The position numbers were made by a program, and so were the translations under genes. Under the pieces are notes generated by a model. It made no database searches. It was given only the letters and a program-made list of their open reading frames with translations, and had not been told where the DNA came from. A stretch of DNA of 64,000 bases from an uncultured virus (IMG/VR IMGVR_UViG_3300027973_000046). Its lineage: Duplodnaviria; Heunggongvirae; Uroviricota; Caudoviricetes. The DNA is taken from positions 1-64,000 of IMG/VR virus record IMGVR_UViG_3300027973_000046; one strand, given 5' to 3'. Positions 4,523-61,569 of the stretch are shown here, one piece after another. Positions within the stretch are counted from its first letter, which is position 1. Each line of letters starts with the position of its first letter.

Positions 4523-4523
4523 G

Positions 4524-29831: not shown

Positions 29832-30788
29832 TTAAAATGAAAGTCCTAATCTATACTCAATATCCATTTGCTTTCCTAGAGACTTAGTAATTAAATTGCT
29901 TGGCGAAAGTACTGACCTGCTTATCATTCCATAGTCTACTCTAAATGTATCTTCGTCATTTATTCTAAGACCATCCAGTAAAACTGTTGTTGCGCCAGAA
30001 CTTTTTGCTTTAGCTCCGACTGATATCTTTACAATAGAATTTTTATCTGGTGTGCCAGATGTAAATCCGCTGCTATATAGGCTGCTTAGATTCAACGATT
30101 TTACCTTATAGCCTACAGTAGCTTCTGACGGATACCTTATTTCATAGTAATTATTATTTGAGTCATATGCTCTAAGGAACACGTAGTCTAGATTTAGATC
30201 GCTTTGATAGTAGGCCATCGTCATACTGTCATTTGCGCTATATCCAGAAATGTCTAGATTAAAATCATAGAAATAATTTTTTGATTGTGAAGACGCAGCT
30301 ACTACTGACATGTAGTATGGTCCTATTTTAGGAGACGAGACAGTAACTAGGGCTGGGTAGTTACCTTCGCTATCTAGCCAAGACTGATTGTCTTCAAAAG
30401 AAGATATAGATCTACTTCCAAAATCAGTTGTACCAAGAGTTATGCTTGGGAACAGGCCAATCTCATTTATTATTCCAGAGACATCTACTGGTATGGTTGT
30501 TTTATATACAACGCCATATGTAGTCAATCCAGTTGAGGTACTTGTTTGTATATCTACGCTTGTAATATTTACTTCCGACCTATAAAATTCAAAATTTAAT
30601 TGAGTGTCATTTACCGTGGCTGGGGTTGAACCTATTCCCAAAGCAATATCTTTTGATGAGGTGTTGGACTGGCCAGCTAAGAACTGGGTTATATATCTTT
30701 TACCAAACTTGGTTAAAATATTTTTAGATCTTGCAATCTCTTTGCCATCTTCATAAAAAATATATTCTCCGTAAATTTTATTTTCCAT
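29832..30788 (-). CDS. Minor tail/baseplate protein
   Basis: SKNILTKFG, IALGIG..DTQL.FE, INEIGLF; tail cluster position. Confidence 0.6.
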   Translation of the reverse strand: MENKIYGEYIFYEDGKEIARSKNILTKFGKRYITQFLAGQSNTSSKDIALGIGSTPATVNDTQLNFEFYRSEVNITSVDIQTSTSTGLTTYGVVYKTTIPVDVSGIINEIGLFPSITLGTTDFGSRSISSFEDNQSWLDSEGNYPALVTVSSPKIGPYYMSVVAASSQSKNYFYDFNLDISGYSANDSMTMAYYQSDLNLDYVFLRAYDSNNNYYEIRYPSEATVGYKVKSLNLSSLYSSGFTSGTPDKNSIVKISVGAKAKSSGATTVLLDGLRINDEDTFRVDYGMISRSVLSPSNLITKSLGKQMDIEYRLGLSF

Positions 30789-31119
30789 ATCCTCTTACCC
30801 CCACAACTTCATCCCCTACGTGATTTTTAATATTAAAAACAAATTCAACGTATTGATTTTTATCTTTGTCCGTAATAAGTTTCTTGCTTACTAAAGTAAT
30901 GTCTTCAAGATTTGGAGGTCCGAATTCTCCTGGTGGTGGTGGAGGCGGCTCTTCCCCACCGTCATCCCCAGATACAACTCCGCTTTGCTGAAAAGAATAT
31001 GGAGATACCACTACGTAGTAGTCTGGCTTTAAAATTTTAATTAACGGGTCGCCTGGAAAAAGGAAAAGCTTTTGGGGCTTTGCATTTGAGGACGAAGGCT
31101 GTCTTGGGTTATAGGTCAT
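30778..31119 (-). CDS. Hypothetical virion protein with a polyproline tract
   Basis: EEPPPPPPGEFGPP; has its own extended -10 promoter. Confidence 0.55.
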   Translation of the reverse strand: MTYNPRQPSSSNAKPQKLFLFPGDPLIKILKPDYYVVVSPYSFQQSGVVSGDDGGEEPPPPPPGEFGPPNLEDITLVSKKLITDKDKNQYVEFVFNIKNHVGDEVVGVRGYGK

Positions 31120-31136
31120 ATTTACATTCTACCATT

Positions 31137-34100
31137 TCATCCAGTATAAATCGATCTGCAGACTATACTTGTAGTTGGCGGGGAAGCGGAATCATAAGTG
31201 TTGTCTAATGACAATATAACAAATTTACTAGCAGAATATCCTGTAGGAATCCCAACGTCCTCTGTTGAATATATCTTATTCTCTGGGTAAGATACCTGAA
31301 TTACATCTCCAACCTGCAAGAGTGGGTTAATAAAAGTTTGAAGAGTCAAAACCTTTTGTTGTTTTGACCACTGGTTTGTCATCCATTTTGCAAGAGACTT
31401 TGCTTCATCTTCTCTTTGAATCCAGGTAGAATCAAATGCAACCTGTTCTTTTTTGTCTTCGTCTGTGAGGTCAGGGTCAATATATTCAAATTGATCAGAA
31501 GGAGTTATAAAGTCTCCAACTACAATAAATTGTTTTTCTTCTCCGTTGGCAAGCGATGTAAAGGCACCAGTATTATTTAATACAAATGTGTCCATGGTAA
31601 ATGGATCCAGGGCTGTTCCAACAATTGTTACATCGTCATTGTTTACTAGCTGTGCATACCTTGGAAAGCCTGGTGTTGTATATCTAGCCTTGATTCTTCT
31701 TAGCTCTCTAGCTACTGGCCCAAATTCTTTTAGCCACGACACGGTTGATACCGTCTCGCCTTTATTAAATATAAAGTCTCCAAAAGTTTTTATTACAGAG
31801 GATGTACCTCCTACAAAACCTTTATATAAATCATATTCGTCTTTTGCAAGAAATTCTTCTTTTGCAATTGATGTTGTATATACATAGTCAAATGCTGATA
31901 TTCCCTGGAGGGATAGCAAACCAATTTTTTCTACTATTGTTAATGGGTCTGTATCAAGCACAGCAATAACTGCATTGTTAATTGATATCTTAAGAGCTAA
32001 AGCTTTTTTTGTTCCACCCGCTGGCTTTGACCAGTTCCCCTTTATGTCAATTCTATAAAGTTCTCCTCCATTAATGTTTGTTATAATTGTTCCATCTGAT
32101 TCTTTTTGTGATGTTGTCATTTTAACAATCTTGCCTGCTACTATTTTATAAAAATTAACATCTCTGTAATTTTTATCTACAGTGGCATTTTGAGAAGTTC
32201 CTATTGTAAGTAGGTATCCACTGGTGTTGTCGGCACTTAAAGAGAATGCAATCCCAGATATTGTTTTTTGGTTTCCTGTTGCCTTTTGAGACACATCGTC
32301 TACTAATAATGGGAAATACATATTTGTTCCTATTGCAAAGCTGTTGTTACTATCTGCAGTTACTTCTCCTAAAAATTTAGGACTATCGTGTGTGACTATT
32401 GAGTATATCTCATTTGGGGTAATAATCTTTGGTTTTGATGGATCTTCGTTATCTTTTTCTGTGTGCAGTGGTGCATAGATTGTCATCATTGATCTTGGTA
32501 TAGAGTTTAAAAGGTTATCTTTATTTTTTATAAGATTTCCTTTCTCGTCTTTTTCTACTTTTACCTGGTCTAATGTAAATAGAGAAGGCTTTTCTGCACC
32601 GAACGTTCCTGCTTTATGAGTCCATTCTCTTGCTTTCCACTCAGTAGTAAGGCTATCTAGTTTTACTTTGTGAGTTAAAGACTCTGTATCTGTAGGCTTT
32701 ACTACCTCAAAAACATTTCTAGATTTTATTCTATACACACCAGTTGGTTTAAATGAGTTTGGCATCGCTAACCCTTGATATTTTTGAATATCGGCTTCAG
32801 ATGTTACCCATTTCCACTCTGGGATTCCTGGAGATGTTTCAGATTTAGTTCCAATTTTAATAAATTCATACAGTATTGCATCGTATTCAATAATTTCTTT
32901 TTCTACAACTAGATACCCCGTAAATGAATAAAATTGTTTTTCGTATCCCGATATAACAACTGGCTCTAACTTAATTACTCCTTGAGGGTTGCTTAGGTCT
33001 GGCCTTTCAGGCTTCCAGTTTTCTGGCGCAACTGGGTCCAGATCATGTGTTAAAGCCGCAGCTCCTAGTGTTACTACTGGAGATGTGTATAGGTTGTCTG
33101 CATTTACTAAATAAGATGAGCTTAGCTGCGGGCTATATAAAACTTTAATTGCTTTCACTGAAGGAACGTTGTCAATAGACAAAGAAGATATGTTTGCTAG
33201 GTTTGTAACGGTACCATTAATTTTTGAAGAGTACCTAAAAGAAGCATTAATGGGATTATCTTTTGCAAATATTTTATCTCTAGGATAAAACTGCAGTACG
33301 TCATTATGGTCAAATATTGCTATCATTTGTGTGTCTTTGCATAAGTCCTGTATGTGTTGCCAGACTGTTTTTTCTTTATCCGTATACCAATGGAAGGGTG
33401 TTATCGTTGAATCATCTTCATCGGCTAAATTAAAAATATAGTTTGTAAATCCAACTGAATCTAAAAGCCTTCTAATTATTGCAACCGAAGACATGTCTGT
33501 TGTAACTATGTCTGGCGGCTTGATGTACTGCAACTCTTTGGCCCCATCTAATGACATTATGTCAACTAGACCAAACTCATCAGCGCTGTAGGAGTCTATA
33601 TAAAATGTTCCAAGCTTGACAATTTCCATATCTACTCTTACATACGGCCTTGCAATAACGTTTTTGTATAAATTAATTTTGTTTTTATTAAATGAATTTA
33701 CCTTGTCATAATTTTCATAAGCTTTATCGTATGCGTTTATTGACATTCTCATTGAGTTTGCTGTTACGTCTCCGACTGGAACTAGGCCGTCAACCTTGTC
33801 AGACGAGTTTGCCGATATATTAAATGACTCTACTCTATCGCTTACATCAATAACATATCTTGCCGATAGCTCTACCATACCAAGAAATCCTAATTTAGGA
33901 GCAGTGCTTGTATCTGGCTTGGTTGATATAGGTACGCTAATTTTCTTTACTTGTAATTTTAACTTATGTATATCAATAGATTTTTCGGTGTCTAAATCTG
34001 CTTCAACGGTTGTCCATAGAGGAAGACCCTTGTAGTATAGGTTTATTACTCCATTAACTATGCCAGCAGAAGTTCCATTATATATTACTGTTTCTGCTCC

Positions 34101-34673
34101 AAGTTTATCTGTTGTAGTTAAAGTCCATTCTGTTGGGGTTGAATGTGATGTTTCAAATTTAACAACTATCTTATTGGTTGCCGCTGTTTTTAAAATAGGA
34201 TACTCAACAGTTAATATGCAATTAGTCAGAGTGGTGTCTCCAGTGGCACTTAGAACAACAGCAGGTGAAACCCAATATTTATATGGTAGCTGCAAGCTTG
34301 AGAAGTATAATCTTTTGCTAAAAGAAGCTGACGATGAGTAAGACTGCTTTGATCCTATTCCGCTTTCTAGGTTTGCTCTTACGCTTCTGTCTCCATCAAT
34401 CATATACTGAATGCCAGCCAACTTTGGTCTTCTTGGATCAATTATGCTGGTTATTGGAAATAGCTTTTCAAATGGCTTGTATGTATTACCAAAAGAATCT
34501 GTTTTTGTTACCTGTAGGTCTCCTGCAGGATTTGTGGCTGTTCCATTTGGCCCACGCATAGTAACCCCATCAATTAATTCATTCATGTTGTATTCTAATG
34601 TGCAACCATTAGTCATCTTAAATGACTGTGATGTATTAATGTAGCTAAGCAGCCCTGGCGATCCTGTAATCAT
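31137..34673 (-). CDS. Large minor tail (hub/Tal-like) protein
   Basis: Second gene after the TMP; C-terminal WIQRE..A..LAKW, NPLLQVGDVIQV. Confidence 0.7.
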   Translation of the reverse strand: MITGSPGLLSYINTSQSFKMTNGCTLEYNMNELIDGVTMRGPNGTATNPAGDLQVTKTDSFGNTYKPFEKLFPITSIIDPRRPKLAGIQYMIDGDRSVRANLESGIGSKQSYSSSASFSKRLYFSSLQLPYKYWVSPAVVLSATGDTTLTNCILTVEYPILKTAATNKIVVKFETSHSTPTEWTLTTTDKLGAETVIYNGTSAGIVNGVINLYYKGLPLWTTVEADLDTEKSIDIHKLKLQVKKISVPISTKPDTSTAPKLGFLGMVELSARYVIDVSDRVESFNISANSSDKVDGLVPVGDVTANSMRMSINAYDKAYENYDKVNSFNKNKINLYKNVIARPYVRVDMEIVKLGTFYIDSYSADEFGLVDIMSLDGAKELQYIKPPDIVTTDMSSVAIIRRLLDSVGFTNYIFNLADEDDSTITPFHWYTDKEKTVWQHIQDLCKDTQMIAIFDHNDVLQFYPRDKIFAKDNPINASFRYSSKINGTVTNLANISSLSIDNVPSVKAIKVLYSPQLSSSYLVNADNLYTSPVVTLGAAALTHDLDPVAPENWKPERPDLSNPQGVIKLEPVVISGYEKQFYSFTGYLVVEKEIIEYDAILYEFIKIGTKSETSPGIPEWKWVTSEADIQKYQGLAMPNSFKPTGVYRIKSRNVFEVVKPTDTESLTHKVKLDSLTTEWKAREWTHKAGTFGAEKPSLFTLDQVKVEKDEKGNLIKNKDNLLNSIPRSMMTIYAPLHTEKDNEDPSKPKIITPNEIYSIVTHDSPKFLGEVTADSNNSFAIGTNMYFPLLVDDVSQKATGNQKTISGIAFSLSADNTSGYLLTIGTSQNATVDKNYRDVNFYKIVAGKIVKMTTSQKESDGTIITNINGGELYRIDIKGNWSKPAGGTKKALALKISINNAVIAVLDTDPLTIVEKIGLLSLQGISAFDYVYTTSIAKEEFLAKDEYDLYKGFVGGTSSVIKTFGDFIFNKGETVSTVSWLKEFGPVARELRRIKARYTTPGFPRYAQLVNNDDVTIVGTALDPFTMDTFVLNNTGAFTSLANGEEKQFIVVGDFITPSDQFEYIDPDLTDEDKKEQVAFDSTWIQREDEAKSLAKWMTNQWSKQQKVLTLQTFINPLLQVGDVIQVSYPENKIYSTEDVGIPTGYSASKFVILSLDNTYDSASPPTTSIVCRSIYTG

Positions 34674-35359
34674 TAAACTTCTTCCAGTGCTATAGATACA
34701 TCCCAAAATTCTTGCGGTTCTGGCAATACCGTGATGGCGGATGCTGTTGATGAAGTAGGTGTTCCAGCTATAGTCCCTGCAACAGTAAATGATGTTGGGG
34801 TAGCTGCGGTAACAGTAAATACTCCGTTATATGCTGCAAATGTTGCTCCAGATATGCTAACTTTATTTCCAACCGCAAAACTATTTTTACCAGTATATGT
34901 TGTTACTGCGCTGGCGTATGATATTGCAGTTATACTTGAATTTTTAAATACCCCGCCTGTTCTTAAATTTCTTTTTGTAACGGTAAAAGTGCAAGAGGTA
35001 AATGACATCATCATTGTTTTCTCTCTTGAAGCCACTCCATTTGGAGAAACCTTTACATTAAATGCACCTTGTCCAGCAGTTGATTCATAAAACTCTTTAA
35101 TGTTCATAGCTCCCCAAGCCCCATCTACTGTCATAGAGGCATAGGTTGGTAAGCCTGTCCAGCTGACCGAGAGCATGTCTTTGTCAGCAATAAATATTTT
35201 TCTTAATGTTCCATTTGACATTCTCTGGGTTTTTTCAATTCTCTGTATATCTAATGTGGCGCTTGCTCTATTGTGTTCACTTAATGGCTGCCAGACTGCA
35301 GGGGTAACTGATGAGTTTTCAAATGTTATAAGGGATCCAAGCGGAAGTGTCATTGCCAT
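34673..35359 (-). CDS. Distal-tail (Dit-like) protein with an inserted beta-rich domain
   Basis: First gene after the TMP; RMSNGTLRK..SVSWTGLP core ending WDVSIALEEV. Confidence 0.6.
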   Translation of the reverse strand: MAMTLPLGSLITFENSSVTPAVWQPLSEHNRASATLDIQRIEKTQRMSNGTLRKIFIADKDMLSVSWTGLPTYASMTVDGAWGAMNIKEFYESTAGQGAFNVKVSPNGVASREKTMMMSFTSCTFTVTKRNLRTGGVFKNSSITAISYASAVTTYTGKNSFAVGNKVSISGATFAAYNGVFTVTAATPTSFTVAGTIAGTPTSSTASAITVLPEPQEFWDVSIALEEV

Positions 35360-38300
35360 TATTTAGCTCCTACAGTAAATGATGGGCCAGCCATTTTAGC
35401 GTTACGTGAATCAAGGCTCTTAATTGCTGTAATTGTTTTCTGAGTTACCATGCTAGACAATTGCTCCAAGTTTCCATCATATCCATTAATATTATTTGTA
35501 ATATTATATACGCCTCCACCCATTGTAGCATTATTAGCGTTTGGATTAAAGGGGTTCATGTTAGCAGGAACGACTGCTTCATTCTTATGAAGCATAGCAA
35601 GCATATCAGCTGGCACGTTATTCACTCCAGTTTTTAATTGAGGTATGCCATATGTAGATCCTATGCCATTACCACTATATTCAAGAATTTTCTTAAAACC
35701 AGCAACTAATTTTTCTGGGTCCAGCATCGCTAGAACATTGTGAAGTTCTGCCCCTGGATTTACCTGCATTCCTCCAGTGTGAAGTATTGAATCAAGCTTT
35801 GATCTAATTAAAGCCTCTGCAGTTTCAGTTCCCTGGCTAAAAGCTTGTGCTCTTGCATCGGAAGCAGTGCTACCAATCTTTCTTAATTCGGATCCACCTT
35901 CTTGCAAAAGGAATTCAAATGCTTCTCTATTTTTTCCAGCTTTTAATAATGTCTTTATATAAGTTCTCAAGAATTTAGGATTTGATATAGATAGTGCAGG
36001 TATTCCATGTCTAATATCTAAAGGCTTGGCAGATTTTATTCTTAAGGCTAACTCAAATAAACTAGACAATGGGTTGGTTTCTAAATTTTTCTGTCTATAA
36101 GCTTTTCCAACGCTCTGGCTGGATGTAGTGAAGAGGTCTAAGCCAAACCAGTTTTTAGCTGGATTGATTGCTTGCCCTTTAAATAATTTGCCAGCTTCAC
36201 CTACTGGTCCAGAACTTAAAACTCTATTTGCTATCTCTGACAGTGCGCCTCCATGGAAAGAGGTTGTTCCTAATGCGTCTTGAATTGAAGACATTGGTAG
36301 ACCTGCAGGAAATACTCCCTTTACATCATCACTGGCATTTTTTACCATAAAATCTGTAAGCTTTTTACCAAAGAATCTGTTAACCATAAGTCTTGATACT
36401 ATTGGGTTTGATTTTATAGCCTTGCTTTTAAGGAACTTCATGATTCGGTCTTCTATATTTTTTACTTTTGCTCCAACAGCGCTTCCATAGTAATACCTTC
36501 CTCTTCCATGAACTATTGGATTAAAATCATACATACCTCTATTTAGCTGACCTAAGATGTCATACAACGTACCATCTCTCTCGCTCAAAAAGTCGCTGGT
36601 CTTTGGATGCTGGGGGTCAGTGCCTTTTCTTACCCAACCACTTCCATAATCATTAGGTTCATATCCAGCTTCGTCTAATATTTTAATAAGCGGTGCTTCA
36701 TAGTCTTTTCTTGCTTTTAATTGTTTTGGATCTAGTAGTAAGTCTGTCTGTGCTTGACCAGACTTTCTTCCGTACTGATAGCCATGTTTTAAAGTTTCGT
36801 TTTCAAGTTTATTCGGAAGGCGTAGTTCTTTTATTCTGGCTGGGATTCCTGTAACGCCACTCTTAATCTTAGAAAGCAGTCCCTTTGCCTTAGCAAGTAT
36901 TCCCTTAGCGGCAAAAGGAATTTTTCCTAAATCATTTTTTAATCCAAATCCTGGGTATCCTACGTTCCAATTTGTTACAATGCCATCTTCTGTTTTATAG
37001 CCAGAGTATCCTCTTTTGCGAAGGTAATTAGCGAAATCGTCACTTATGTATGTCGGCTGAGAGACTCCAAATTTATTGGCATAGCGTAATTTTTCCGCTG
37101 CCATTTCTGGGCCATCTGTTATTGCGCCTTTTCCAAATGCAGTTTTAAGCCAAGCAAGAGGGGATAGGCTAAGCTTGTGTGCGTTAGTTGAAAATTGATC
37201 ACTTGCATACGTGGTGCTGTCAAGGGCGCCATAGGTACCAGGTCCATAAGTATGCATTGCATCTGTTCGTCTTCCTATGTTAGGAGTTAGAGCATCTGGT
37301 GAATTATGTGCAAAGTGCGTCCAGGCTTTTGCATCCTTTACCCTTTGTACTATTTTACTTATATGAGGAGCTATTTTATTTCCAGCAAATCCAAATGGTA
37401 CTGACAGTCCTGCTGTTAATGCAACATTTTGTGCGGACTTAGAGAAGCTCATATTCTTTAATTCTTTATTGGCATTAAATCCCTTAACTCCAGACTGAGT
37501 TCCGCCCTTTACTCCATACTGAGATCCGTCTTTAATTAGGCCAGCCAGTCCTTCAACTAGCCCTATTCCAACGCCACCAAGTCCTCCTGCGCCACCGAAT
37601 GTAAGTCCTGAAAGACCACCTTGCGCCGTGTTGAATGCGACTCTACCTAGTGCTCTACCCCATTTAGATAGCCCAGATGCATTTTCATTTGCACCCCATT
37701 TTAATGAAAGTCTTTTTTCAATTTCTTCCATTGATTGCCAGATTGCAGCAGAGCCCATAATCTGTGGCATCTTTTTAAATCCAGATTTAACCCATCCGCC
37801 AAAACCAAATTTTGGTATTCCGCCCACGTGTCCGCCTTTATGGAAGCCTAAACCAGATTTGATTTTCTTAAATAGCTTACCCCAGTTAATAGTTGACTGC
37901 ATAGATCCGCCAGAAACTAATGTTCCATTAGTACCAATCAGTTGGCCATTTGTGCCAAGAATTTCTCCTCCACCTTCAATTCGGCCCTTACTTAAAAAGT
38001 ATTCATGTTTTTCGGGAACATACTCTGGATAAATTGTTTTATATTTATCAGGCAGGAATAATTCTGCTCTTCTGTTTCTGGCTCTGTTCTCAGCAGTTGT
38101 ATTTGGAACAAGAGGTCTGTACTCCCCGTATCCCACTGGAGTAAATGCTGTACCAGGAACAAATTTTGACATATACTCCGCAATAGATTTTGCTCTATTC
38201 TGTGAAAGAATCTCATTGTCTTTTCCTTTACCTACAGAGTCTGTGTGCCCCTGAACAACTATTGATGCTAGCTTATGCTTAATAAGATCTTTAGCAATTG

Positions 38301-41300
38301 CTTGAAGTTCTAGTCTTTGCTCTTTATTTAATGTGTAAGAGTTTGTAGCAAAATTAGCTGTGATTGGCGGAACTTCAATTTTAATAATCTGCTTATTAGC
38401 ATCTTGCCATGCTTCTATTGGGCCCATCAATTTTCCACCTTGATGGTTTACGTTTACAGTTGTTGACCCATTTCCAAATGAGCTCTTGTGATCAGACTGA
38501 GCAGTTGGAGTTATTGGTCCGCCTGCTGCAAATCTACCAGCATTTAGTGCATCAAAATGATCTACTCCATATTTAGCTACGGAGTCTGCTTTAATTACAT
38601 ATTCACCATTTGATAAGTAGGCTGGGATGGAATCAGATGTTGCAGTTCCCGCTCCTCTAATATATCCACCGTCTGCTTTTTTGTAAGGATCAGTCACTTC
38701 AATTATCTGGCCCCTGTTATCCATCTTGTATACAAATATTTTTCCATCGTTATCAGTTAATGAGAAAAATTGTCCAGGCAAAATTCCTCTTTCTTCTGCA
38801 ACGTCCTTAACCTTTTGTCTAGTTCCTAACTTACCAAACCCGCCAAGACCTGACCAATCTGCCAAAGTTGTTTTACTGATCGTGTTTGTTCCGACACCAG
38901 CTTTTCCTAAATCATAAGGAGCATCTTTTGTTCCAGATCCTCTTCCACCAATTTCAAACTTTTTGCCATCGACATAGATGCTAACATTTCCTTTAACATC
39001 TATAGTGCTCATTGCGCCTAATTTATTTTGAAGTCCATCTGTAAGGGCCTTTGCTAGGTCAAGATCTTTTAATCCATTAAGTTTAATTCCTGCAGCCTTA
39101 GCTGCATCTGCAACAGCGCCAAGCATTTTTTCAGATTCCTTACCTGCTTTCCACTTTGCTCTTTCTGCTTCTGGCTGCTTTAATAATTCAATTTCCCAGT
39201 TTAGCATTGCAGAATTAACTGAGCTGATTGCGCTTTCTTGGTTAGTAATTGTTTTAGAAAGGTCTCCTAATTTTTCACCTGCAAGTTGTGCTTTGTCTGC
39301 TATGCCCTGCTGCTTACCCTGAATTGCTTCAATTAGTTTTTGAAGCGGTAAGTTCTTTAAAGTATTTGAGTCTTCAAGGGATTTCTTTTGTGAATTATAT
39401 TGAAGCTCGCTTTGGTATCCTTGAATGTCTAGGCTAGCCTGTTGTGCGCCAGCAATGTTTCCAGTTGCAAGTGCTGCATCATATTCTGCCTGCTTCTTTG
39501 CAATTTCTCTACCGATATCGCCTTCTTGTTTTGCGGCATCAAGAGCTTTTAATCTTGACTCTGTTAGCTTGTTGTTGGCATCTATTTGTTTTTGAATAGA
39601 GTTTATCTTATCTCTATCTGATATTTGCTGTGCAACTGACTGGCCTCTTGCTGCTTTTTCATACGCCGCCTGTAGTTTTTTATTTGCATCCAAGGCTTTG
39701 TATTGCTTTTCTAGCGCACCACCAGGAGCTCTATTTGCAGCCTCTATTGATTTTCCTAAAGCTATCTGTAAGTTATAAAGGTCATTTGTCTGTTGATCAT
39801 TTAGCGCTCTCAGATCTCCAGTGTATCCCTTAACTTGAATTCTTGTTTTTTGCCATAAAGACAAAGCCGTTTCTTGCTCATTAACAATTTGTCTAATTGC
39901 TGGGTCTATCTTAGACATTTCGTCTACAACCTCTTTAGTCAAATATCCTTGATTTTGTACTTTAGAATTAATCTCATCAATTGCAGCTTGTTCTTGATCA
40001 AGCATTATTTGTTTTTCGTCACCCGTTGAAAGATAAGTTCCATCTTTGTTGGCTTGTTTACGTGCTTCTTTTAATGCCTTTGCCTGCCTAGACTCTACGT
40101 CAGTAGATAATGCCATCATGGCTGTGTTGAGTTGGTTTGCCTGCTCTGTTGCATCACGATTAGTTTCCATTGCAGTAGTTAAACTATCTATTGCACTGGC
40201 TGCAGCAGATGCCGTGTCTTTTATATCATTAAAGCCTTGTGAGCGAACTGTGTAGGCTGCGGCATTAGGTGCGAGATCCGATGCTGCATACATTGTGTAT
40301 ATCTTTTTAGCTGCATCTTCTGCTGACATTCCCATAGCAATTAATTGTTCTTTAAGTCTTATAGCTAAAGCCTTCTGATCTTCTGCGTTGTCTCCAGTTT
40401 GATTGATAAGAGCAACCTGATCAGAATAGTTTTCTTTGACTTCTTTTTTTAATTTCTTGTATTCTTCAATTGTAATCTTTAAAGGAGTGCCAGATCCCTT
40501 CATGCTTTCATAAAGAAGAGTATTCTTTTCTCTTAATGCTTTTGCATTATTAATTGCTTCTTTAATCTTGTCATTAAAGTTTGTAAATTTAAGTCCTGCT
40601 TTTGATGCGGCTTCTGCTGTCATACCATAACCCAGAGCATTTAATCTTAAGGCTTCTTTATGTTCCTGCCATTTTTTCCATGCAAACTGTACGCCAATTG
40701 CAGTTATTCCAAGCGCAAGATTAAATCTTGTAAATATTTTTAATGCTGCCCCTAATGATTTGCTTAAAAGATTTGCGCTGCCGCTTAACTTAGTAAGTTG
40801 AGTTCCATATTTTGTATCAACCAAAAGAGGCTTTCCATTACGGAAAACACCCTCTACTGCTGTTTTGGCTCCAATAGGCTGCGTGGCTTTAGGGAACATA
40901 TTGCTAATTCCTTTGCCACCGCCCTTTGGCATTGCGTTACCCATCAGTAAGAATGGAAGGAATGATCCCATTGTGGTCATTACGTTTCCAGGAGTTCCTC
41001 CAATCTTTTCACCAGCATACTTTGAACCTTCGCTTATACCCATAATTAAAAGCAATTGTTTAAGCATTGGAATGAGGCCGCCTGGATTAAACCCATTAAT
41101 AGGTCCGCCAGCCTTATATCCATTTGGAATTATGCCGCCAGCATTTCTTGGAACAAATAGCTCTGGTCCTTTTTCTCCAACAATGTATGGCTGCCCTGAA
41201 TTAACTGGCCCACCCATTTCTCTTTTTTCTATTCCAAATACTAACTGCTTTAAGGTTTCTGTTAATGGTGTGTCTTTTTTAGATTCCCAGTTTGCAAACT

Positions 41301-44300
41301 TTTTTCTAAGAATTTCTCTATCTATAGCAGAAAGAACTTTTCTTCCTTCTGGTGCAGACAATGTTGAGGAGGCCGCAGATCTTATTACAGAATCCATAAC
41401 ATCTGGCTCTACTGCTCTTATTAAGTGGCCCTGTGCGTTCTTGGTATATCCATATGGCATTTCTTTGGCAAGGGATGCAGCAAATTTATCATATAGAATT
41501 TTTTGCGTTCTCTTTGTTAAGCCAGTAGATCCAAAAAGTTTTTCAGCCATTCCTATCTGTAATGATGTTACTCCCCATGGGGCTGACTCATACGTGCTTG
41601 GTTTAGGTGCACCTGTTGGCCCAAATCCTGCGCCAATTCTATGCATTGCTTTGCTCTTTGTAATTGCTTCAAGCAATCCACCAAATCTAAATCCGTTTGC
41701 ATCAGTTTTAAATGCATTATCTGACAGGCTTGCTGAATGGCCAGTTTGTCTGCGCTTTAGTTCGTCTGCCGCTACCATCTTTGCTATAGCCGCTGGCGTC
41801 ATTTGTTTTTCTGGTGACATCTGTAAACCAGAGTGAATTCCATGAAGCTCTTTCCAATTTACGCCTCTTGCATCAGATAGCCTTTTAATCATTGCTTCAT
41901 AAACAACTTTTTCTTCTGGGTTTAAATCAAATCTTGAAACTGTCTGCTTAAGCTTTGGTAAAGCGCTTTCAATCTCTTTAAGCATACGGCTATGATATTC
42001 ATCTGCGGTCATGCCTTTTGGTATTTGATGAGTTGACTCAGCAAAGAATTTCTTAGCTCCGCTGCCTTTTTTTCCTAATAGATTTATATAAGCCTGATCT
42101 TTTACTGAGGGCATAACTGATGCGTAGCCTCTAAGCCCAGATGCTGCTGAGAATACTCCAGCTGGTCCTACGTCTGAAAGAACGTTTCCAGATAAATTAC
42201 CTCTTGCCAAATCTTTGTCTCCACGTAAAGCTGATGCGACTAGCTGTCTAAAATATTCGTCTGTAGTAAATTTAGCATCTGTCGCTGCAACTTTGGGATC
42301 AAATTTAGACTCAAGTGCTAATAGCTTTCTTCTACCAGTTGGATCGGTAGGGTCTCTCATTACAACAACTTTTTGTGTTGGAGCATGTAATCCATGAACC
42401 TCACGAGCAATTTGTGTTGCTCTCATTTCTGCAACTGCTGCTCTCTCGTCTAACACTGGCTTTACAAATACTTTTTCATCGCCCTTCATATAAAGTCCGC
42501 CAACTCCTGGAACAGGGAAGCTACGGCCTGAAGTAGGAGAGAGAAGTTCTCCGTATTGAGTTACTGGGGTCTTTGCAAATCTAGAATCAGTAACTGCCTG
42601 GTTTGCTTTTTCCATGGCAACTCTTTTTGCTCTTTGTTCTTCAACTTGTTTTATAGTTTTAGGCATGCCAATAAAGAAAGGCTTACCGTATCCATATCTT
42701 CCTCGCTCTACAGCTCCTCCAGGAATAGATCCTCCAGCATTTCTTTTAAGAAATGCTCTTGACATCATTATGGCAAGTCTTTGTCTGCTTGCATTAAATG
42801 AGCTTCCGCTGAATGTTCCAAGCATTCCTTTTGCAAGGCCAGCCAACTTTGAATTTTCAATTGTAGTTAAACCATTTCTGGATTTAACAAGTGTTTCTAA
42901 TGCCGCAATAGGCTTTCCGTCTCTTGGTCCCATAGGTTGAAGTACTGAATTGAATATTGATTTAAATGATCTATCTCCAACTCTTATGTCCTTAAATGAC
43001 TTAGAGCCAATTACTTCTTTTTCAAACCATTTTTCAAATGTCATTACTCCATTTTTACCACCAAATACTCTTGTATCTTTTTCAAGATTTTTCAGCATTT
43101 CATTAAACACTTTATTAAATTGAGTATTATTTCTTGGGTCTCCGCCAAGACCTTGTGCTGCAGTCATCCATGGCTCAAATGGATGTCTTCCTGCTGCAAT
43201 TGCTTTTCTAAATTCTTTTGCTAGCTGTGGACCAGTCATTCCGCTGCCGACTGATCGAGTTTGTTGATTTGCATCTCTGCTCATCCAAATTGGAATTCCT
43301 CTACCAACACTTACAGAGTTAGCATATCCTCTTGTTGCCCGCACCCTTTTAAGATCAGCAGCAGATGCTTCAGATACGTGGCTTCTTTCAAAAGCTGTCT
43401 CTCCGCCAAATTCGTGCATACCGCTTCCAGATGTATTTCCAGGTCCGCCATTTAATTCATACATCAAAGGCATATTTCTTTTTGCAATATTCGCTGGTAT
43501 GACTGCTTCTCCAGGTGTTAATACAACTGGGACTTGTCCGCCTTCTTGTGCATAATAAGACTTGCCTCCAAGTATATTTGTTATTAACGGAAGATGCTTT
43601 TCAGTTGCAGCTTTATTAATTACAAATGCGCCAGGCTCTGCTGTGGTGTGGTAGGTATCCGTGTCACCAGTTCCTGGGACAAAGCCTCCTTTTGCAAACC
43701 TTGGCTTTGTTGTTTCAATGTTATATCCAGCACCTGATGTTCTTACGCCACCGAGAGCTCTTGCAATTCTATCAACCATTGCTTTTGTAGGTCCCTTATG
43801 AAACATTTCTTTCATATTAGATTTGCCTGTGACTGGATCTACTACTGGCTGGGAAGTGAGTGGTACTGTAGTAAGGTTTGCTGTTCTTCCCATTCCTGCT
43901 GCAGTTAATCTTGTTGTTTCTGCAAGCATTGCTTCAACAGTTGCATTCAATGAAATAATTCTTGCTCTACCTTGTTCTACAGTTATTTTACTTTGTTGAA
44001 CTTGCTGTACGATTGCTGCAGTTTCTTTTGCGGCAAGGTCTGTTATCTGACTAAACTCTGGGAGTAGTGCTTGATATGAATCGGATAAACTTGATGTAAC
44101 AGTTCCTGTTGCCATAACTTCTGCTTTTAATATTTTAAGTTCTGCTTCAGATTGCATAGCAATAGCGGCTGTCATTGCATGCCATTTTGCAGCCTCTGCG
44201 GCGACAATTCCTGTTGATGCTCCTCCAACTGATGTTAGTCCAGGAATTTTTGGAAGATCTGCATCCATGTAGGCTTGTGGATTTCTGCCAACTCTTATGT

Positions 44301-46401
44301 TTACTGGCTTTGCTCCTGGAACTGTTCCAAATATTGTTCCATCCTGTGGGTTACCAGAAGGAATTAAATGTGACATGTCTCTTGAATATGGTTTACCGAC
44401 TAGTGGATTATTTTTATCCACCATTCTTCCAGCTGGGCCAGCTGCCATTATTACTCCGCCTGCTACTGTTGATACTGCTGGCTGGACTGAAACTTTGGCC
44501 GCATTTGCTTTTGCTTCTAGATTTATAAATGACTCTGCAAGTGTATTTACTGCATTTGATAAAACAATTGTTGCTTCTGTATCAGAGTAAAATGATGTTG
44601 CGAGTCCCTTGGCGGCTGCATCTGCGGCCATGATCTCTGGTGTTAATAATTTAAAACCTTGTCCGCCTTTTGCCAGCTGCCTTAGATGAAATATTCCCTT
44701 AATAACATAGCCAATAAAGTTGCCCATAACACCAGCCAACATAATAAGAGGTCCAGCAATTGCTGTAAAGCCTCCTAATACATTTAATAATGTTTTAACT
44801 GGCTCTGGAAGCTTTTGGAAAAACTTTATAATTGCGTCAACAACTTTTAATACCTTAGTGCTTATTCTTAAGAACTGCTCTCCTGCTCCAGCTAGATCTG
44901 CTTGAACTGATGCCCAAGCTCTTTTAAATTGACCAGAGGCTGACTCTGTCATCATCTTTAATTCTCGATCTGAAATCGCTGCTAAGTCTGTTACACTTGC
45001 CTTCATTAAGTCCATTACCTGGAGTGTCTGTGAACCAGATTTCCCTAAGTTTTCAAAGAGGGCCGACATTCTTGCAAACTGAAACTTACCGAATAGTTGT
45101 TCAATTGCTCTTGATTTGTCTAAAGGATTAAGATTATCTAAAGCGGCCTGTAATTCTAATATTGTTGCAGTAAGGTCTCCAGCATTACTATTTACAATTC
45201 CCTTTAGATCAATTCCAAATCCAGCGAACTGCTCTGTTGCAACCTTGGTTGGGTTGATAAGTGATGCCATTGCTGACTTAATTGCGTTTGCGCCTTCTGA
45301 TGCATTTACTCCACCTTCTTTCATTGCTGTAAGGTATAGTGCTAAATCTTTTACATCTCCGCCGAGTGCTTTAATTACTGGACCAGCTTTTGGAATCGCT
45401 TCAGTTAAATCTGCAAGGCTTGTTGAAGTTTGGTTTTCAACTGCGTTGAGGAAGTCAATTGATTGTGCAAGCTCGTCTGTGTTTTGTTTAAATGCATTTT
45501 GAATAGCAAGAGTTGCTTTCATAGCATCTTGTCTGTCAACTTCACCAAGGACTGCAAGTCTTGTTGTTTGCTGTGTAGCTGCAATTAGTTCATTGCCCTG
45601 TTGTCCAGTTGCTGCTAAGTCTGCCGCAAGTGCAATTGTTTCTTTATAAGCAACACCATACGACCCAGCAATCTCTCTTGCTGTAGCTGTAACATCTTTT
45701 CTTACCTGCGCCAAGTCTGCAGATGAAGTTGCTGCAAGTCCGCCGTAGACCTTTGTTAATCTTACTAGCTCTGCATCCGCTTCTCTAAATGCTTTTTGTG
45801 CTGCTGCTCCAAACATAACCAAAGGAACTGTTAGTCCTACTGTTAGCTGACGACCTGCCCACTGGGTATTTTTACCCCAGTTAATAAGACCAGTAGATCC
45901 ATCAAGCATTACCTTGTTCATTATTGCGGCTTCTTGTCTAGCAATAGCCATCTTATTCTTTATTTCATCAAGGCCCTTTGCAACCATAACATTGTACTGC
46001 ATTTGGCCTTGTGCATTTTTACCTACAGGCTGAACTATAGCTTGCTGAAGCATTACTTGCTGCTTAGCAAGGTCTCTAATTAAATTGCTTGTTTTCTTTG
46101 TATGACCGTTCCAAGCATTATAATAATCGTTGAGCTTGAGGCGACCTCTATCTAAGTTCTTACCGAACTTGTCTACGTCTGAAGATAGTGATACAAAGTG
46201 TTGAGAGAACTGGCCTGTTGATGTAAGCGTTGTAGCAAACGACTTGTTCATCACTGCAATTTGGTTTGCAAGCTTTGCGTTTGTTCCCGCTGTTGTTTCT
46301 TGTAACTTTACGAGTTGGGCAGTAACCGCAGCTAGTTGAGCTCTTAGGCTCGTGAAGTCTGCGTGGGCGGTAATATTGGTAGTTATTATATTATCTGCCA
46401 T
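35359..46401 (-). CDS. Tape measure protein (TP901-type core), 3680 aa, with multiple accessory domains
   Basis: Follows the tail chaperones; GRQLTVGLTVPL, TRLAVLGEVD, FLNAVEN, LFGK; hydrophobic segments; repeated FAxGG..GExV motifs. Confidence 0.93.
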   Translation of the reverse strand: MADNIITTNITAHADFTSLRAQLAAVTAQLVKLQETTAGTNAKLANQIAVMNKSFATTLTSTGQFSQHFVSLSSDVDKFGKNLDRGRLKLNDYYNAWNGHTKKTSNLIRDLAKQQVMLQQAIVQPVGKNAQGQMQYNVMVAKGLDEIKNKMAIARQEAAIMNKVMLDGSTGLINWGKNTQWAGRQLTVGLTVPLVMFGAAAQKAFREADAELVRLTKVYGGLAATSSADLAQVRKDVTATAREIAGSYGVAYKETIALAADLAATGQQGNELIAATQQTTRLAVLGEVDRQDAMKATLAIQNAFKQNTDELAQSIDFLNAVENQTSTSLADLTEAIPKAGPVIKALGGDVKDLALYLTAMKEGGVNASEGANAIKSAMASLINPTKVATEQFAGFGIDLKGIVNSNAGDLTATILELQAALDNLNPLDKSRAIEQLFGKFQFARMSALFENLGKSGSQTLQVMDLMKASVTDLAAISDRELKMMTESASGQFKRAWASVQADLAGAGEQFLRISTKVLKVVDAIIKFFQKLPEPVKTLLNVLGGFTAIAGPLIMLAGVMGNFIGYVIKGIFHLRQLAKGGQGFKLLTPEIMAADAAAKGLATSFYSDTEATIVLSNAVNTLAESFINLEAKANAAKVSVQPAVSTVAGGVIMAAGPAGRMVDKNNPLVGKPYSRDMSHLIPSGNPQDGTIFGTVPGAKPVNIRVGRNPQAYMDADLPKIPGLTSVGGASTGIVAAEAAKWHAMTAAIAMQSEAELKILKAEVMATGTVTSSLSDSYQALLPEFSQITDLAAKETAAIVQQVQQSKITVEQGRARIISLNATVEAMLAETTRLTAAGMGRTANLTTVPLTSQPVVDPVTGKSNMKEMFHKGPTKAMVDRIARALGGVRTSGAGYNIETTKPRFAKGGFVPGTGDTDTYHTTAEPGAFVINKAATEKHLPLITNILGGKSYYAQEGGQVPVVLTPGEAVIPANIAKRNMPLMYELNGGPGNTSGSGMHEFGGETAFERSHVSEASAADLKRVRATRGYANSVSVGRGIPIWMSRDANQQTRSVGSGMTGPQLAKEFRKAIAAGRHPFEPWMTAAQGLGGDPRNNTQFNKVFNEMLKNLEKDTRVFGGKNGVMTFEKWFEKEVIGSKSFKDIRVGDRSFKSIFNSVLQPMGPRDGKPIAALETLVKSRNGLTTIENSKLAGLAKGMLGTFSGSSFNASRQRLAIMMSRAFLKRNAGGSIPGGAVERGRYGYGKPFFIGMPKTIKQVEEQRAKRVAMEKANQAVTDSRFAKTPVTQYGELLSPTSGRSFPVPGVGGLYMKGDEKVFVKPVLDERAAVAEMRATQIAREVHGLHAPTQKVVVMRDPTDPTGRRKLLALESKFDPKVAATDAKFTTDEYFRQLVASALRGDKDLARGNLSGNVLSDVGPAGVFSAASGLRGYASVMPSVKDQAYINLLGKKGSGAKKFFAESTHQIPKGMTADEYHSRMLKEIESALPKLKQTVSRFDLNPEEKVVYEAMIKRLSDARGVNWKELHGIHSGLQMSPEKQMTPAAIAKMVAADELKRRQTGHSASLSDNAFKTDANGFRFGGLLEAITKSKAMHRIGAGFGPTGAPKPSTYESAPWGVTSLQIGMAEKLFGSTGLTKRTQKILYDKFAASLAKEMPYGYTKNAQGHLIRAVEPDVMDSVIRSAASSTLSAPEGRKVLSAIDREILRKKFANWESKKDTPLTETLKQLVFGIEKREMGGPVNSGQPYIVGEKGPELFVPRNAGGIIPNGYKAGGPINGFNPGGLIPMLKQLLLIMGISEGSKYAGEKIGGTPGNVMTTMGSFLPFLLMGNAMPKGGGKGISNMFPKATQPIGAKTAVEGVFRNGKPLLVDTKYGTQLTKLSGSANLLSKSLGAALKIFTRFNLALGITAIGVQFAWKKWQEHKEALRLNALGYGMTAEAASKAGLKFTNFNDKIKEAINNAKALREKNTLLYESMKGSGTPLKITIEEYKKLKKEVKENYSDQVALINQTGDNAEDQKALAIRLKEQLIAMGMSAEDAAKKIYTMYAASDLAPNAAAYTVRSQGFNDIKDTASAAASAIDSLTTAMETNRDATEQANQLNTAMMALSTDVESRQAKALKEARKQANKDGTYLSTGDEKQIMLDQEQAAIDEINSKVQNQGYLTKEVVDEMSKIDPAIRQIVNEQETALSLWQKTRIQVKGYTGDLRALNDQQTNDLYNLQIALGKSIEAANRAPGGALEKQYKALDANKKLQAAYEKAARGQSVAQQISDRDKINSIQKQIDANNKLTESRLKALDAAKQEGDIGREIAKKQAEYDAALATGNIAGAQQASLDIQGYQSELQYNSQKKSLEDSNTLKNLPLQKLIEAIQGKQQGIADKAQLAGEKLGDLSKTITNQESAISSVNSAMLNWEIELLKQPEAERAKWKAGKESEKMLGAVADAAKAAGIKLNGLKDLDLAKALTDGLQNKLGAMSTIDVKGNVSIYVDGKKFEIGGRGSGTKDAPYDLGKAGVGTNTISKTTLADWSGLGGFGKLGTRQKVKDVAEERGILPGQFFSLTDNDGKIFVYKMDNRGQIIEVTDPYKKADGGYIRGAGTATSDSIPAYLSNGEYVIKADSVAKYGVDHFDALNAGRFAAGGPITPTAQSDHKSSFGNGSTTVNVNHQGGKLMGPIEAWQDANKQIIKIEVPPITANFATNSYTLNKEQRLELQAIAKDLIKHKLASIVVQGHTDSVGKGKDNEILSQNRAKSIAEYMSKFVPGTAFTPVGYGEYRPLVPNTTAENRARNRRAELFLPDKYKTIYPEYVPEKHEYFLSKGRIEGGGEILGTNGQLIGTNGTLVSGGSMQSTINWGKLFKKIKSGLGFHKGGHVGGIPKFGFGGWVKSGFKKMPQIMGSAAIWQSMEEIEKRLSLKWGANENASGLSKWGRALGRVAFNTAQGGLSGLTFGGAGGLGGVGIGLVEGLAGLIKDGSQYGVKGGTQSGVKGFNANKELKNMSFSKSAQNVALTAGLSVPFGFAGNKIAPHISKIVQRVKDAKAWTHFAHNSPDALTPNIGRRTDAMHTYGPGTYGALDSTTYASDQFSTNAHKLSLSPLAWLKTAFGKGAITDGPEMAAEKLRYANKFGVSQPTYISDDFANYLRKRGYSGYKTEDGIVTNWNVGYPGFGLKNDLGKIPFAAKGILAKAKGLLSKIKSGVTGIPARIKELRLPNKLENETLKHGYQYGRKSGQAQTDLLLDPKQLKARKDYEAPLIKILDEAGYEPNDYGSGWVRKGTDPQHPKTSDFLSERDGTLYDILGQLNRGMYDFNPIVHGRGRYYYGSAVGAKVKNIEDRIMKFLKSKAIKSNPIVSRLMVNRFFGKKLTDFMVKNASDDVKGVFPAGLPMSSIQDALGTTSFHGGALSEIANRVLSSGPVGEAGKLFKGQAINPAKNWFGLDLFTTSSQSVGKAYRQKNLETNPLSSLFELALRIKSAKPLDIRHGIPALSISNPKFLRTYIKTLLKAGKNREAFEFLLQEGGSELRKIGSTASDARAQAFSQGTETAEALIRSKLDSILHTGGMQVNPGAELHNVLAMLDPEKLVAGFKKILEYSGNGIGSTYGIPQLKTGVNNVPADMLAMLHKNEAVVPANMNPFNPNANNATMGGGVYNITNNINGYDGNLEQLSSMVTQKTITAIKSLDSRNAKMAGPSFTVGAK

Positions 46402-46410: not shown

Positions 46411-47075
46411 TTACTCTATAGAGTATCCTAATCCCGCTCCGACACCGAATCCAGCTTCCGCTGCTAAGCCACCTTGTAATGAAACAACATCGTCTGCTGA
46501 TGCATTTATACCAAGTGCTCTTCTTCTAATGTCTTCGAAGGATGACCCCTCCTTATTTTCATTACTGCTTTCATTTAACTCAACGCCCTGTATTAAAGCT
46601 AAGAACTTTCTTTTCTCTTCTTCAGTTTTTTGCATTGATTTAAAAGTCTGGACCATCTCTGGCATCGAAAGACTATCTTCTAATTCTTCGTAATTTTTCC
46701 AATTACCTAGAAGAAAGACTTCCCCTTCTAAAGCGGCTAAATCTAGTTCTGCCCAGCCAGTACCGTTGCCGCTAGAAGGTTTGGGTCGTCCATCTTAATT
46801 CCACCGCATACTTCAAGAATGCGATTGATTGTTGGAACGTCAAGTGTGTCTTCAAATGCGTCAATGTCTTTAACTAGCTCTGGTAGTTGCTTTTCTAAAG
46901 CCACTGCACATGCTTCGATTAAAATTGTTAGTGTTTCATCTTCTGATGAAACTTCTGCTGTCTTCTGAATGACGACCATAAACTTGCGAAGCTCTTTAAT
47001 TGTTAAAGGCTTAAGCTTAACTGTTGCGCCATTTGCTAGTTGAATTTCTTCAACATCATATACCGTACTTGCCAT
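46411..47075 (-). CDS. Tail assembly chaperone, -1 frameshift fusion product (gpGT-like)
   Basis: Slippery C CCA AAC at 46779-46785. The -1 frame is open (PSSGNGTGWAELDLAALEGEVFLLGNWKNYEELEDSLSMPEM...) and in frame with ORF 46411-46665. Confidence 0.8.
46743..47075 (-). CDS. Tail assembly chaperone (gpG-like)
   Basis: Between the major tail gene and the TMP; LKPLTIKELRKF; GGAGG RBS. Confidence 0.85.
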   Translation of the reverse strand: MASTVYDVEEIQLANGATVKLKPLTIKELRKFMVVIQKTAEVSSEDETLTILIEACAVALEKQLPELVKDIDAFEDTLDVPTINRILEVCGGIKMDDPNLLAATVLAGQN

Positions 47076-47104
47076 TTTAATCCTCCTAGGATCTTGTCTT
47101 AATT

Positions 47105-47133
47105 ATTGTATCATATTCAAAATACAAGAGCAA
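47105..47133 (-). promoter_or_regulatory. Sigma70-like promoter for the chaperone/TMP genes
   Basis: Minus strand TTGCTC-N17-TACAAT with a TG extension. Confidence 0.55.
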
Positions 47134-47161
47134 TAGAAAGCCCCCCAATTTCTTGGGGGGC
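47133..47161 (-). terminator. Intrinsic terminator after the major tail gene
   Basis: GCCCCCCAA-N4-TTGGGGGGC stem (47140-47161), then TTTCTATT on the minus strand. Confidence 0.75.
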
Positions 47162-47185
47162 AATCTATTAATTAATTAATATTAA

Positions 47186-47884
47186 TTATGCTACTAGGAC
47201 ACGGTCAACAATAATGCCGTATTCCCTGCCTTGCTTTGCTTCTACTGGAAGCAAACGGAAGGTTACTGGGAATGTTGTTGCTGCGTTACGTGATAGTGAG
47301 AACTGTGACTGTTGTACAGAAAGAACACGACGAGCATAATATACACGCTCTGTCTTTGTTGCAGATTCTGTAGGTGCCTGTCCAACTGCTACTAGCTGAC
47401 GCTCTGTTGGTGCAATACCAAGAGCTCCTGCCTCTAGACCAATTGTGTCTGTCTTATTTTCTGCTACAGCTGTTCCAGTTGTTACTGCTGAACCTGCCTG
47501 TCCAAATACTGCAAGAACGTTCTCAAGAGTACCTTCTGCAAGCTCTGTTGCAATCATAACTTCCATTGACTCTTTGAAAAGTTTTGCTGAGTCAAGAAGC
47601 TGATCTACTGTTACTGAACCGTATGATGGGTTGTAAGTAATTTGAAGACCGTTATTTGTAAATCCAACGTTTCTCCACTTTGCTTGGTTTCCTACCGCGT
47701 TAAGTGTGTCTGCGTATGAAGCTGTTTTTAGTACTGGTGGGGTTGCTGCTGCATTTTTTACAACAAAAGCTACACCGTCGGTTGAACCTGGCTCCATGTC
47801 ATCCTTGTAGCCTGCTGATGTTGAATCAAGTGCTGACAAGAATAGTGGAGAAGCTCCAACTAGAATATTTTTGGCTGATGCCAT
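47186..47884 (-). CDS. Major tail (tube) protein
   Basis: NILVGASPLF, VGFTNNG, VDQLLD, ELAEGTLEN, FPVTFRLLP; GGAGG RBS. Confidence 0.85.
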   Translation of the reverse strand: MASAKNILVGASPLFLSALDSTSAGYKDDMEPGSTDGVAFVVKNAAATPPVLKTASYADTLNAVGNQAKWRNVGFTNNGLQITYNPSYGSVTVDQLLDSAKLFKESMEVMIATELAEGTLENVLAVFGQAGSAVTTGTAVAENKTDTIGLEAGALGIAPTERQLVAVGQAPTESATKTERVYYARRVLSVQQSQFSLSRNAATTFPVTFRLLPVEAKQGREYGIIVDRVLVA

Positions 47885-47973
47885 TTGTATTACCTCCATT
47901 AAATAAATATATATATTGACTTACTTTTAAATCTAAATCAAAGCTGGCTAGGCTCTCTTTTTCCTCTTGCCTA

Positions 47974-61547: not shown

Positions 61548-61569
61548 ATTATCATTATACCATTTCTAT

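Follow-up and report, generated by a model that had tools for sequence, protein, structure and literature searches.

A segment of 335 residues within a giant phage tape measure protein (TMP) is almost certainly a kinase-like fold with an intact active site, and it forms an optional cassette that may be delivered with the virion. The protein, P0001, is encoded in the window analysed here, a stretch of 64,000 nucleotides from an uncultured virus of the Caudoviricetes (positions 1 to 64,000 of IMG/VR record IMGVR_UViG_3300027973_000046). A single minus-strand open reading frame (ORF; 35359–46401) of 3,680 amino acids (aa) contains the interval 41840–42560, to which the original prediction had assigned a HipA/PI3K-like kinase domain; the plus strand of this interval has no open frame and is full of stops. 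P0001 could be identified as a TMP from its matches to PF10145 at aa 239–438 (E 1.5e-26; 93.9 bits for a cut-off of 33.2), to TIGR01760 at aa 192–548 (E 2.1e-29; 102.6 bits for a cut-off of 28.8) and to PHROG TMP families (best E 1.3e-115). At 1.5 Å per residue, a TMP of this length would correspond to a tail of roughly 550 nm.

The six motifs quoted in that prediction are all present, in the order given there and in one minus-strand frame inside the TMP: the Gly-rich loop PGVGGLY, VFVKP, AVAEMRATQIAR, GLHAP, the catalytic-loop-like LRGDKDLARGNL and LSDVG (Table 1). Searches with aa 1218–1600 recovered 554 relatives at E ≤ 0.001 among length-matched proteins and 166 representatives among 1.84 billion clusters at 50% identity. 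In a hidden Markov model (HMM) alignment of 150 of these 166 representatives, with gapped rows excluded from the counts, identical residues were found at G1302 (135/135), Y1304 (131/135), K1314 (135/135), E1325 (139/139), Q1386 (145/145), D1397 (145/146), N1402 (145/145), D1410 (145/145) and G1412 (141/145). A family-specific stretch after the DxG motif is also highly conserved (A1420, S1421, R1424, Q1436, N1440, G1446, F1453 and T1457). The representatives listed are all TMPs of about 2,000–4,500 aa or else shorter proteins, apparently contig-end or partial pieces, and no free-standing form of the domain is evident among them. Identity to P0001 is higher in the kinase module than in the N-terminal TMP module for 77 of the 96 representatives that have both, with medians of 48% and 39%, respectively.

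The predicted structure agrees with these motif assignments. An AlphaFold2 (AF2) model of aa 1218–1600, built from an alignment of 41 sequences (one from the window, 30 from IMG/VR loci and 10 from short fragments in databases), has a mean pLDDT of 75.1 and a pTM of 0.71. Model residues 30–330 (to which 1217 is added to obtain protein numbering) mostly reach pLDDT 85–97, and the tails (1–29 and 337–383) are disordered. The N-lobe comprises strands 69–72, 85–89 (preceded by the Gly loop) and 92–99 (with K97, corresponding to K1314) and a helix, 102–119, that carries E108 (E1325). The chain continues with strands 126–132 and 142–149, helix 163–176 and a loop with D180 and N185 (D1397 and N1402), followed by short strands, D193 (D1410) and a helical lobe (216–307) with helices of pLDDT up to 97. 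The order of these elements is that of a kinase. With its N-lobe beta-sheet and helix C and its helical C-lobe, the model has the bilobal protein-kinase-like (PKL) fold, and the full PKL active-site set (Gly loop, Lys, Glu, Asp...Asn and metal Asp) could be assigned by secondary-structure element.

A structure search independent of Foldseek, in which the model was compared with 48,161 chains, returned kinase-type names in all of its best 50 rows. These include CotH (5jda; Z 11.9, 214 aligned residues, r.m.s.d. 3.8), MavQ (7m7a; Z 10.3, 216 aligned residues, r.m.s.d. 4.1), PI4KII-alpha (4hnd; 10.0), CtkA (3akj; 9.8), HipA (4pu3; 9.5), Fam20C (8.8) and actin-fragmin kinase (8.0). The nearest folds are a mixture of protein kinases (CotH, CtkA, HipA and Fam20C) and lipid kinases (PI4KII, MavQ and LepB), all within about 2 Z units of one another. 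With Foldseek, all rows listed were likewise kinases (E about 1e-3, TM 0.2–0.3). The best matches among predicted viral structures were large phage multidomain proteins (E 4e-6 to 1e-3), some of them annotated as ADP-ribosyltransferase, portal-fused or PI3K/PI4K.

The boundaries of the cassette could be drawn from a kinase-less relative, L121, whose TMP of 3,361 aa aligns to P0001 over aa 1–1233 (75% identity) and 1569–2630 (47%) with only 7 residues of its own between the two blocks. Since L121 lacks exactly that stretch, we place the cassette at aa 1234–1568 (41698–42702), with a modelled core at aa 1247–1550; the interval originally proposed lies inside this domain but is too short. The flanks are KRNAGGSIPGG upstream and NGFRFGGLLEA downstream in P0001, and RRNSGGEISG and FGIGGLLGN in L121, following the pattern RN[AS]GG and F-x-x-GGLL. 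In L125, L128 and L129, a larger block (aa 987–1726) is replaced by unrelated sequence. We sampled 80 loci in which the N-module of the TMP is 67–100% identical to that of P0001 and the TMP frame was read through. Complete TMP ORFs of at least 2,000 aa are found in 47, of which 23 contain the kinase module and 24 do not; among the other 33, which are truncated or do not reach 2,000 aa, 16 contain it. In the 112 representatives with 2,000 aa or more, the widely common parts are the N-module (aa 1–600) and the kinase module, the rest being mosaic, although only their co-occurrence is informative in a set that was picked by the kinase. In 100 of 107 representatives there is a hydrophobic segment before the kinase module (median distance 162 aa), and in 103 of 107 there is another after it (score at least 1.3; median distance 514 aa).

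With a GC content of 0.413, the cassette does not differ from the whole TMP (0.400), so that there is no sign of a recent foreign origin. A scan of one genome per species in GTDB, covering bacteria and archaea, gave one confirmed cassette locus among 74 pattern matches, and no prophage or cellular copy is evident there because this sole locus (L081, 48% identity) lies on an 85,019-base contig of a metagenome-assembled genome (MAG) labelled as an uncultured Bifidobacterium. The size of this contig makes a phage origin, with binning into the MAG, probable.

We propose that the cassette is an atypical PKL domain that would act as an ATP-dependent phosphotransferase, with a K1314–E1325 pair, D1397-x4-N1402 and a metal-binding D1410-x-G. 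As a part of the TMP it would be built into the virion and kept in a non-native, extended state inside the lumen of the tail. During infection it would be pushed out before the DNA and end up at or across the cytoplasmic membrane, flanked by two hydrophobic segments of the TMP, where it could refold, use host ATP and phosphorylate a host target so as to favour takeover of the cell or to block a defence. The flanking hydrophobic segments could hold the cassette at the cytoplasmic side of the membrane, with the OmpA domain of the same TMP remaining in the wall. The target could be a protein (at Ser, Thr or Tyr) or a lipid of the membrane; kinases of either type occur among the fold neighbours. 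Phosphatidylinositol, a lipid of actinobacteria, would be one candidate if the host belongs to that group.

Judging from sequence conservation, the cassette is probably an active phosphotransferase, since the invariance of all five catalytic positions over deep divergence would be hard to explain otherwise. Its presence in the virion is a little more probable still: as a stretch of the TMP polypeptide it should be there if it is not excised. That it acts after ejection and not before assembly is suggested by the precedent of Thermus phage P23-45, discussed below, and by the flanking hydrophobic segments; by this analogy we would put it slightly short of an even chance. For the whole chain, that is, an active virion-borne kinase cassette that acts on the host after ejection, we find the balance about even. 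The proposal is partly supported: the data support the fold and the active site, whereas delivery and role are what we infer from them.

Several observations weigh against this proposal. At E ≤ 10, a Pfam search with aa 1218–1600 returned only DUF2434 and SNCAIP (E > 0.1), NCBIfam returned 0 families, phmmer against the PDB gave only noise (E > 0.5) and a profile search of the PDB (hmmsearch) with the 41-sequence alignment gave 0 hits. Among the 41 aligned members, a single one matches PF00454 (E 0.008), and the other Pfam families listed are scattered noise. When the same alignment was compared by hhalign with Escherichia coli HipA (probability 0.46%) or with an alignment of 29 HipA sequences (28 genome loci and E. 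coli HipA; probability 0.07%), the result was not significant. The model segment after DxG (196–245) is of lower confidence (pLDDT 65–85). Moreover, the cassette is dispensable, being absent from 24 of 47 complete related TMPs; its profile leaves no trace in the TMP of Streptomyces phage StarPlatinum (2,102 aa) under hmmsearch --max, and tblastn against the 50,697 phage records of INPHARED gave no match. Delivery raises difficulties of its own. The lumen of a siphovirus tail tube should be too narrow for a folded domain of about 300 aa, and storage and refolding have to be assumed for this reason. In addition, ATP is found only in the cytoplasm, yet the peptidoglycan-binding OmpA domain of the same TMP must remain outside.

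The original prediction had compared the domain with HipA, CtkA and PI3/4 kinases. This comparison is borne out by the predicted fold and by the neighbours in the structure search; it does not extend to family membership, as the domain of P0001 matches no HipA or PF00454 family profile, and the profile comparison suggested along with the prediction gave, for HipA, only the insignificant values reported above. HipA_C (PF07804) produced no domain match at E ≤ 10 and is absent from the 25 families listed, out of 28, for the 41 members. Profile searches likewise did not place the domain in PI3_PI4_kinase (PF00454) or in CotH (PF08757), the latter without any PF08757 match. In the comparison with the 29-sequence HipA alignment, Lys, Glu and the D..N loop do line up with those of HipA, to which we give little weight, and the nearest named clusters in the ESM Atlas (LepB_N, PI3_PI4_kinase and HipA_2, at 0.90–0.91) are classed as weak. 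The domain is thus of the kinase-like fold class but not a demonstrable member of the HipA, PI3K/PI4K or CotH families. It represents a kinase-like family outside all Pfam and NCBIfam models, seen in this analysis only in giant TMPs and their fragments.

Comparison with individual kinases leads in the same direction. CotH from the Bacillus spore coat (PDB 5jd9/5jda) is only 8–9% identical to the cassette, and the likeness is one of predicted fold; CotH is also a free-standing cellular protein involved in coat assembly, whereas the TMP domain is a cassette within a phage protein. CtkA of Helicobacter pylori, PI4K type II alpha/beta, Legionella MavQ, the LepB N-domain and HipA/HipT have no significant sequence or profile match to the cassette. 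PI3/4K-like and HipA-like kinases have a His in their DRH/DxH motif, where the cassette has Leu or Ala (D1397-L-A-R-G-N1402), and unlike in these kinases, the spacer from the Asn to the metal Asp counts only 8 residues. The N-terminal domain of HipA and its antitoxin partner are absent here.

An alternative, which we consider unlikely, is that the kinase is active in the producing cell, before or during tail assembly, and travels in the virion as passive cargo. The TMP is made in an ATP-containing cytoplasm, where the domain could phosphorylate its own TMP, other proteins of the tail or late targets in the host, and CotH offers an analogy in that it phosphorylates spore-coat proteins during coat assembly. 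The rank of CotH weighs little, however, as the rows within about 2 Z units include the secreted or effector kinases CtkA, MavQ and LepB. A role in assembly is also at odds with the clean dispensability of the cassette, which is missing from 24 of 47 TMPs whose N-modules are 67–91% identical, and P23-45 illustrates that a TMP-borne enzyme can work after entry.

Less probable again is a kinase fold without canonical phosphotransfer, serving as an ATP-sensing switch or pseudokinase (in channel opening or rearrangement of the TMP) or carrying out AMPylation or glutamylation. Some kinase-fold proteins, such as SelO and SidJ, indeed catalyse other ATP-dependent reactions of this kind. The missing sequence-level link to any characterised kinase family and the conserved stretch after DxG (A1420 to T1457), which has no nameable counterpart, are consistent with such a function, and the location between hydrophobic segments would suit a sensor. 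However, at least one canonical phosphotransfer residue is usually lost or displaced in pseudokinases and in enzymes of other chemistry, and here all five, including the catalytic-loop Asp and Asn, are essentially invariant. Finally, short motifs are readily found in a protein of 3,680 residues and this one has no Pfam, NCBIfam or PDB sequence match, but a coincidental motif order in a low-constraint helical TMP segment, with no kinase-like domain at all, is extremely improbable given motif residues that are invariant over 135–146 divergent representatives, a confident AF2 core whose best 50 structure-search rows are all kinase-like folds, and a module more conserved than the TMP core.

The cassette would belong with known virion-borne host-modifying enzymes and enzyme-bearing TMPs. 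The Rpf-like motif of mycobacteriophage TM4 and the peptidase of T5 pb2 are cell-wall enzymes embedded in TMPs. Like the cassette as proposed here, they are enzymatic modules in a tail ruler protein and are used at entry; they differ from it in that their substrate is peptidoglycan, on the outer side of the membrane, and no ATP is required. In Thermus phage P23-45, gp96 is a TMP of 5,002 aa fused to a virion RNA polymerase, which is found in virions and transcribes the pre-early genes, and the same article presents TMPs as being in a metastable state inside the tail tube and as entering the envelope by injection (PMC10770324). As described there, gp96 resembles P0001, in the role proposed for it, in being a giant TMP that combines a cytoplasm-acting enzyme with domains acting on the membrane and the cell wall. 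Its enzyme is an N-terminal two-barrel RNA polymerase with an activity shown experimentally, whereas the one predicted in P0001 is an internal kinase-fold cassette, optional among relatives.

Predicted kinase domains have also been described in polyvalent proteins that phages and conjugative elements inject (Iyer et al., 2017; PMC5512222). The shared concept, as set out in that article, is a protein-modifying enzyme within a large multidomain virion protein, for which host proteins are the predicted targets and the T7 kinase is an analogue. According to the same text, these kinases lack the whole C-terminal subdomain, have a His...Asp insert and occur in (pro)phages from the Verrucomicrobia-Chlamydia group and Bacteroidetes and in MuF-type proteins. 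The P0001 domain differs from them in having a helical C-lobe and in its location in a TMP, and with that lobe and no His before the Asp it does not fall into their clade. The term 'tape measure' has no occurrence in the accessible text of PMC5512222. A review of jumbo phages treats TMPs as conduits and discusses polyvalent injected proteins, and its accessible part does not mention a TMP kinase. We found no kinase in a TMP in the literature searched, the coverage of which leaves out most subscription journals.

The other features of P0001 are collected in Table 1. The OmpA-like domain is also matched by NCBIfam models of the OmpA/Pal/MotB type and is the sole further domain found by Pfam on 400-aa tiles of the TMP. 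Among the cassette relatives listed it occurs only in the longer ones (about 3,000–4,200 aa), where it may serve to fix the TMP to the cell wall after ejection. A short junction peptide (…P/G-E/A-x-V/F-I/V-P/K/N…, e.g. SDSIPAYLSNGEYVIKA), present in five copies, splits the TMP into blocks. Two of the copies are matched by PHROG TMP families (phrog_23013 at aa 2577–2624 and phrog_1538 at aa 1726–1760), and block swaps among relatives occur near these peptides.

Table 1. Features of the TMP gene and of its kinase-fold cassette, with positions in the window.
Feature	Position (nt)	Strand	Residues (aa)	Basis
TMP gene P0001	35359–46401	-		PF10145, TIGR01760, PHROG, gene order
N-terminal TMP core module	44602–46401	-	1–600	aligns in about 97–100 of 112 representatives of at least 2,000 aa
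Candidate membrane hairpin, strongly hydrophobic	44683–44802	-	534–573	Kyte-Doolittle peak 1.94
Kinase-fold cassette, 335 residues	41698–42702	-	1234–1568	L121 alignment gap; AF2 core aa 1247–1550
Gly-rich loop PGVGGLY	42490–42510	-	1298–1304	G1302 invariant; before model strand 85–89
VFVKP	42457–42471	-	1311–1315	frame read
Candidate ATP-binding beta3 Lys	42460–42462	-	1314	135/135; in model strand 92–99
AVAEMRATQIAR	42403–42438	-	1322–1333	helix-C Glu motif
Candidate helix-C Glu	42427–42429	-	1325	139/139; in model helix 102–119
GLHAP	42379–42393	-	1337–1341	frame read
Catalytic-loop-like LRGDKDLARGNL (D1397, N1402)	42193–42228	-	1392–1403	directly after model helix 163–176
LSDVG, DxG (DFG-equivalent) with D1410	42166–42180	-	1408–1412	D1410 145/145
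Short junction peptide (GEKGPELFVP / GE-x-V-I/P type), downstream of cassette	41077–41256	-		regex scan
Further junction peptide copies	43543–43722, 43423–43602, 38518–38697, 35494–35673	-		regex scan, 5 copies in total
Moderately hydrophobic segments, downstream of cassette	40678–41091	-	1771–1825, 1882–1908	hydropathy peaks 1.1–1.37
OmpA-like peptidoglycan-binding domain	38071–38352	-	2684–2777	PF00691 E 2.2e-18

The neighbours of the TMP gene are major-tail-like and small chaperone-like genes (46743–47899) and minor tail genes (29832–35359). This order of tail genes is the one annotated in StarPlatinum, and the gene lies where a TMP gene is expected. The source record comprises 78,928 bases, with an estimated completeness of 73%. 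Its nearest cultured relatives are the Streptomyces cluster BE siphoviruses (Stanwilliamsviridae), with 55–60% identity in the major capsid protein and 33% identity between the N-terminus of P0001 and their TMPs. The host is likely to be an actinobacterium, because these are the closest cultured phages; a search of the 78,928-base record with PF02467 for a WhiB gene, as a further clue to the host, gave no match.

Another small cassette of the TMP, KDAKAWTHFAHNSP...YGPGTYGA...GYKTEDGIVTNWNVGYPGFG at aa 3000–3215 (36757–37404, minus strand), recurs nearly unchanged in the different TMP context of locus L086. By eye it is like an H-Y-E ADP-ribosyltransferase; ART-PolyVal scores in the ESM Atlas are weak (0.76–0.80), only 3 related loci were found and the mean AF2 pLDDT is 42.6. 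Elsewhere in the window, 2OG-Fe(II) oxygenase-like paralogues stand in tandem on the minus strand (58623–63635), at 58623–59285, 59285–60043, 60858–61547 and 62946–63635, and an ORF within this run (60043–60897) matches only the related phrog_2297. With one further gene of this type at 9939–10565 (minus strand), their number is unusual for one phage. A Nol-like carbamoyltransferase (4575–6020, minus strand; phrog_1601, E 1e-99) is an auxiliary metabolic or modification gene, and three minus-strand tRNA genes (3257–3330, 4450–4522 and 4523–4597) comprise Lys-TTT, Arg-TCT and Met-CAT. A kinase-annotated ORF at 1–720 (minus strand), which runs off the window edge, matches phrog_10255 'kinase' (E 2.4e-54) and, weakly, an 'ATPase' PHROG; it is unrelated to the TMP cassette.

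TMPs are usually seen as rulers and channel formers, and the P23-45 study stands as the first demonstration of a cytoplasm-acting enzyme on a TMP. The cassette described here defines a kinase-like family unrecognised by Pfam or NCBIfam models. The occurrence of such a constrained, optional kinase-fold cassette in hundreds of uncultured phages may reflect a general and modular delivery of host-modifying enzymes through the tail lumen. It also raises the biophysical question of how an enzyme of about 300 residues could withstand being stored in a narrow tube and regain its fold once ejected. More speculatively, and with rather less than even confidence, one may picture the tail lumen as an effector magazine and the TMP as a string of exchangeable cassettes stored unfolded and shot into the host before the DNA, among which the kinase would refold at the inner face of the membrane, between two TMP segments inserted there, and phosphorylate a host protein or membrane lipid only seconds after adsorption, when no phage gene has yet been expressed. 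If this were true, the cassette would match the T7 kinase in role while being loaded in advance, and it would be the first known case of a kinase delivered via a phage tail.

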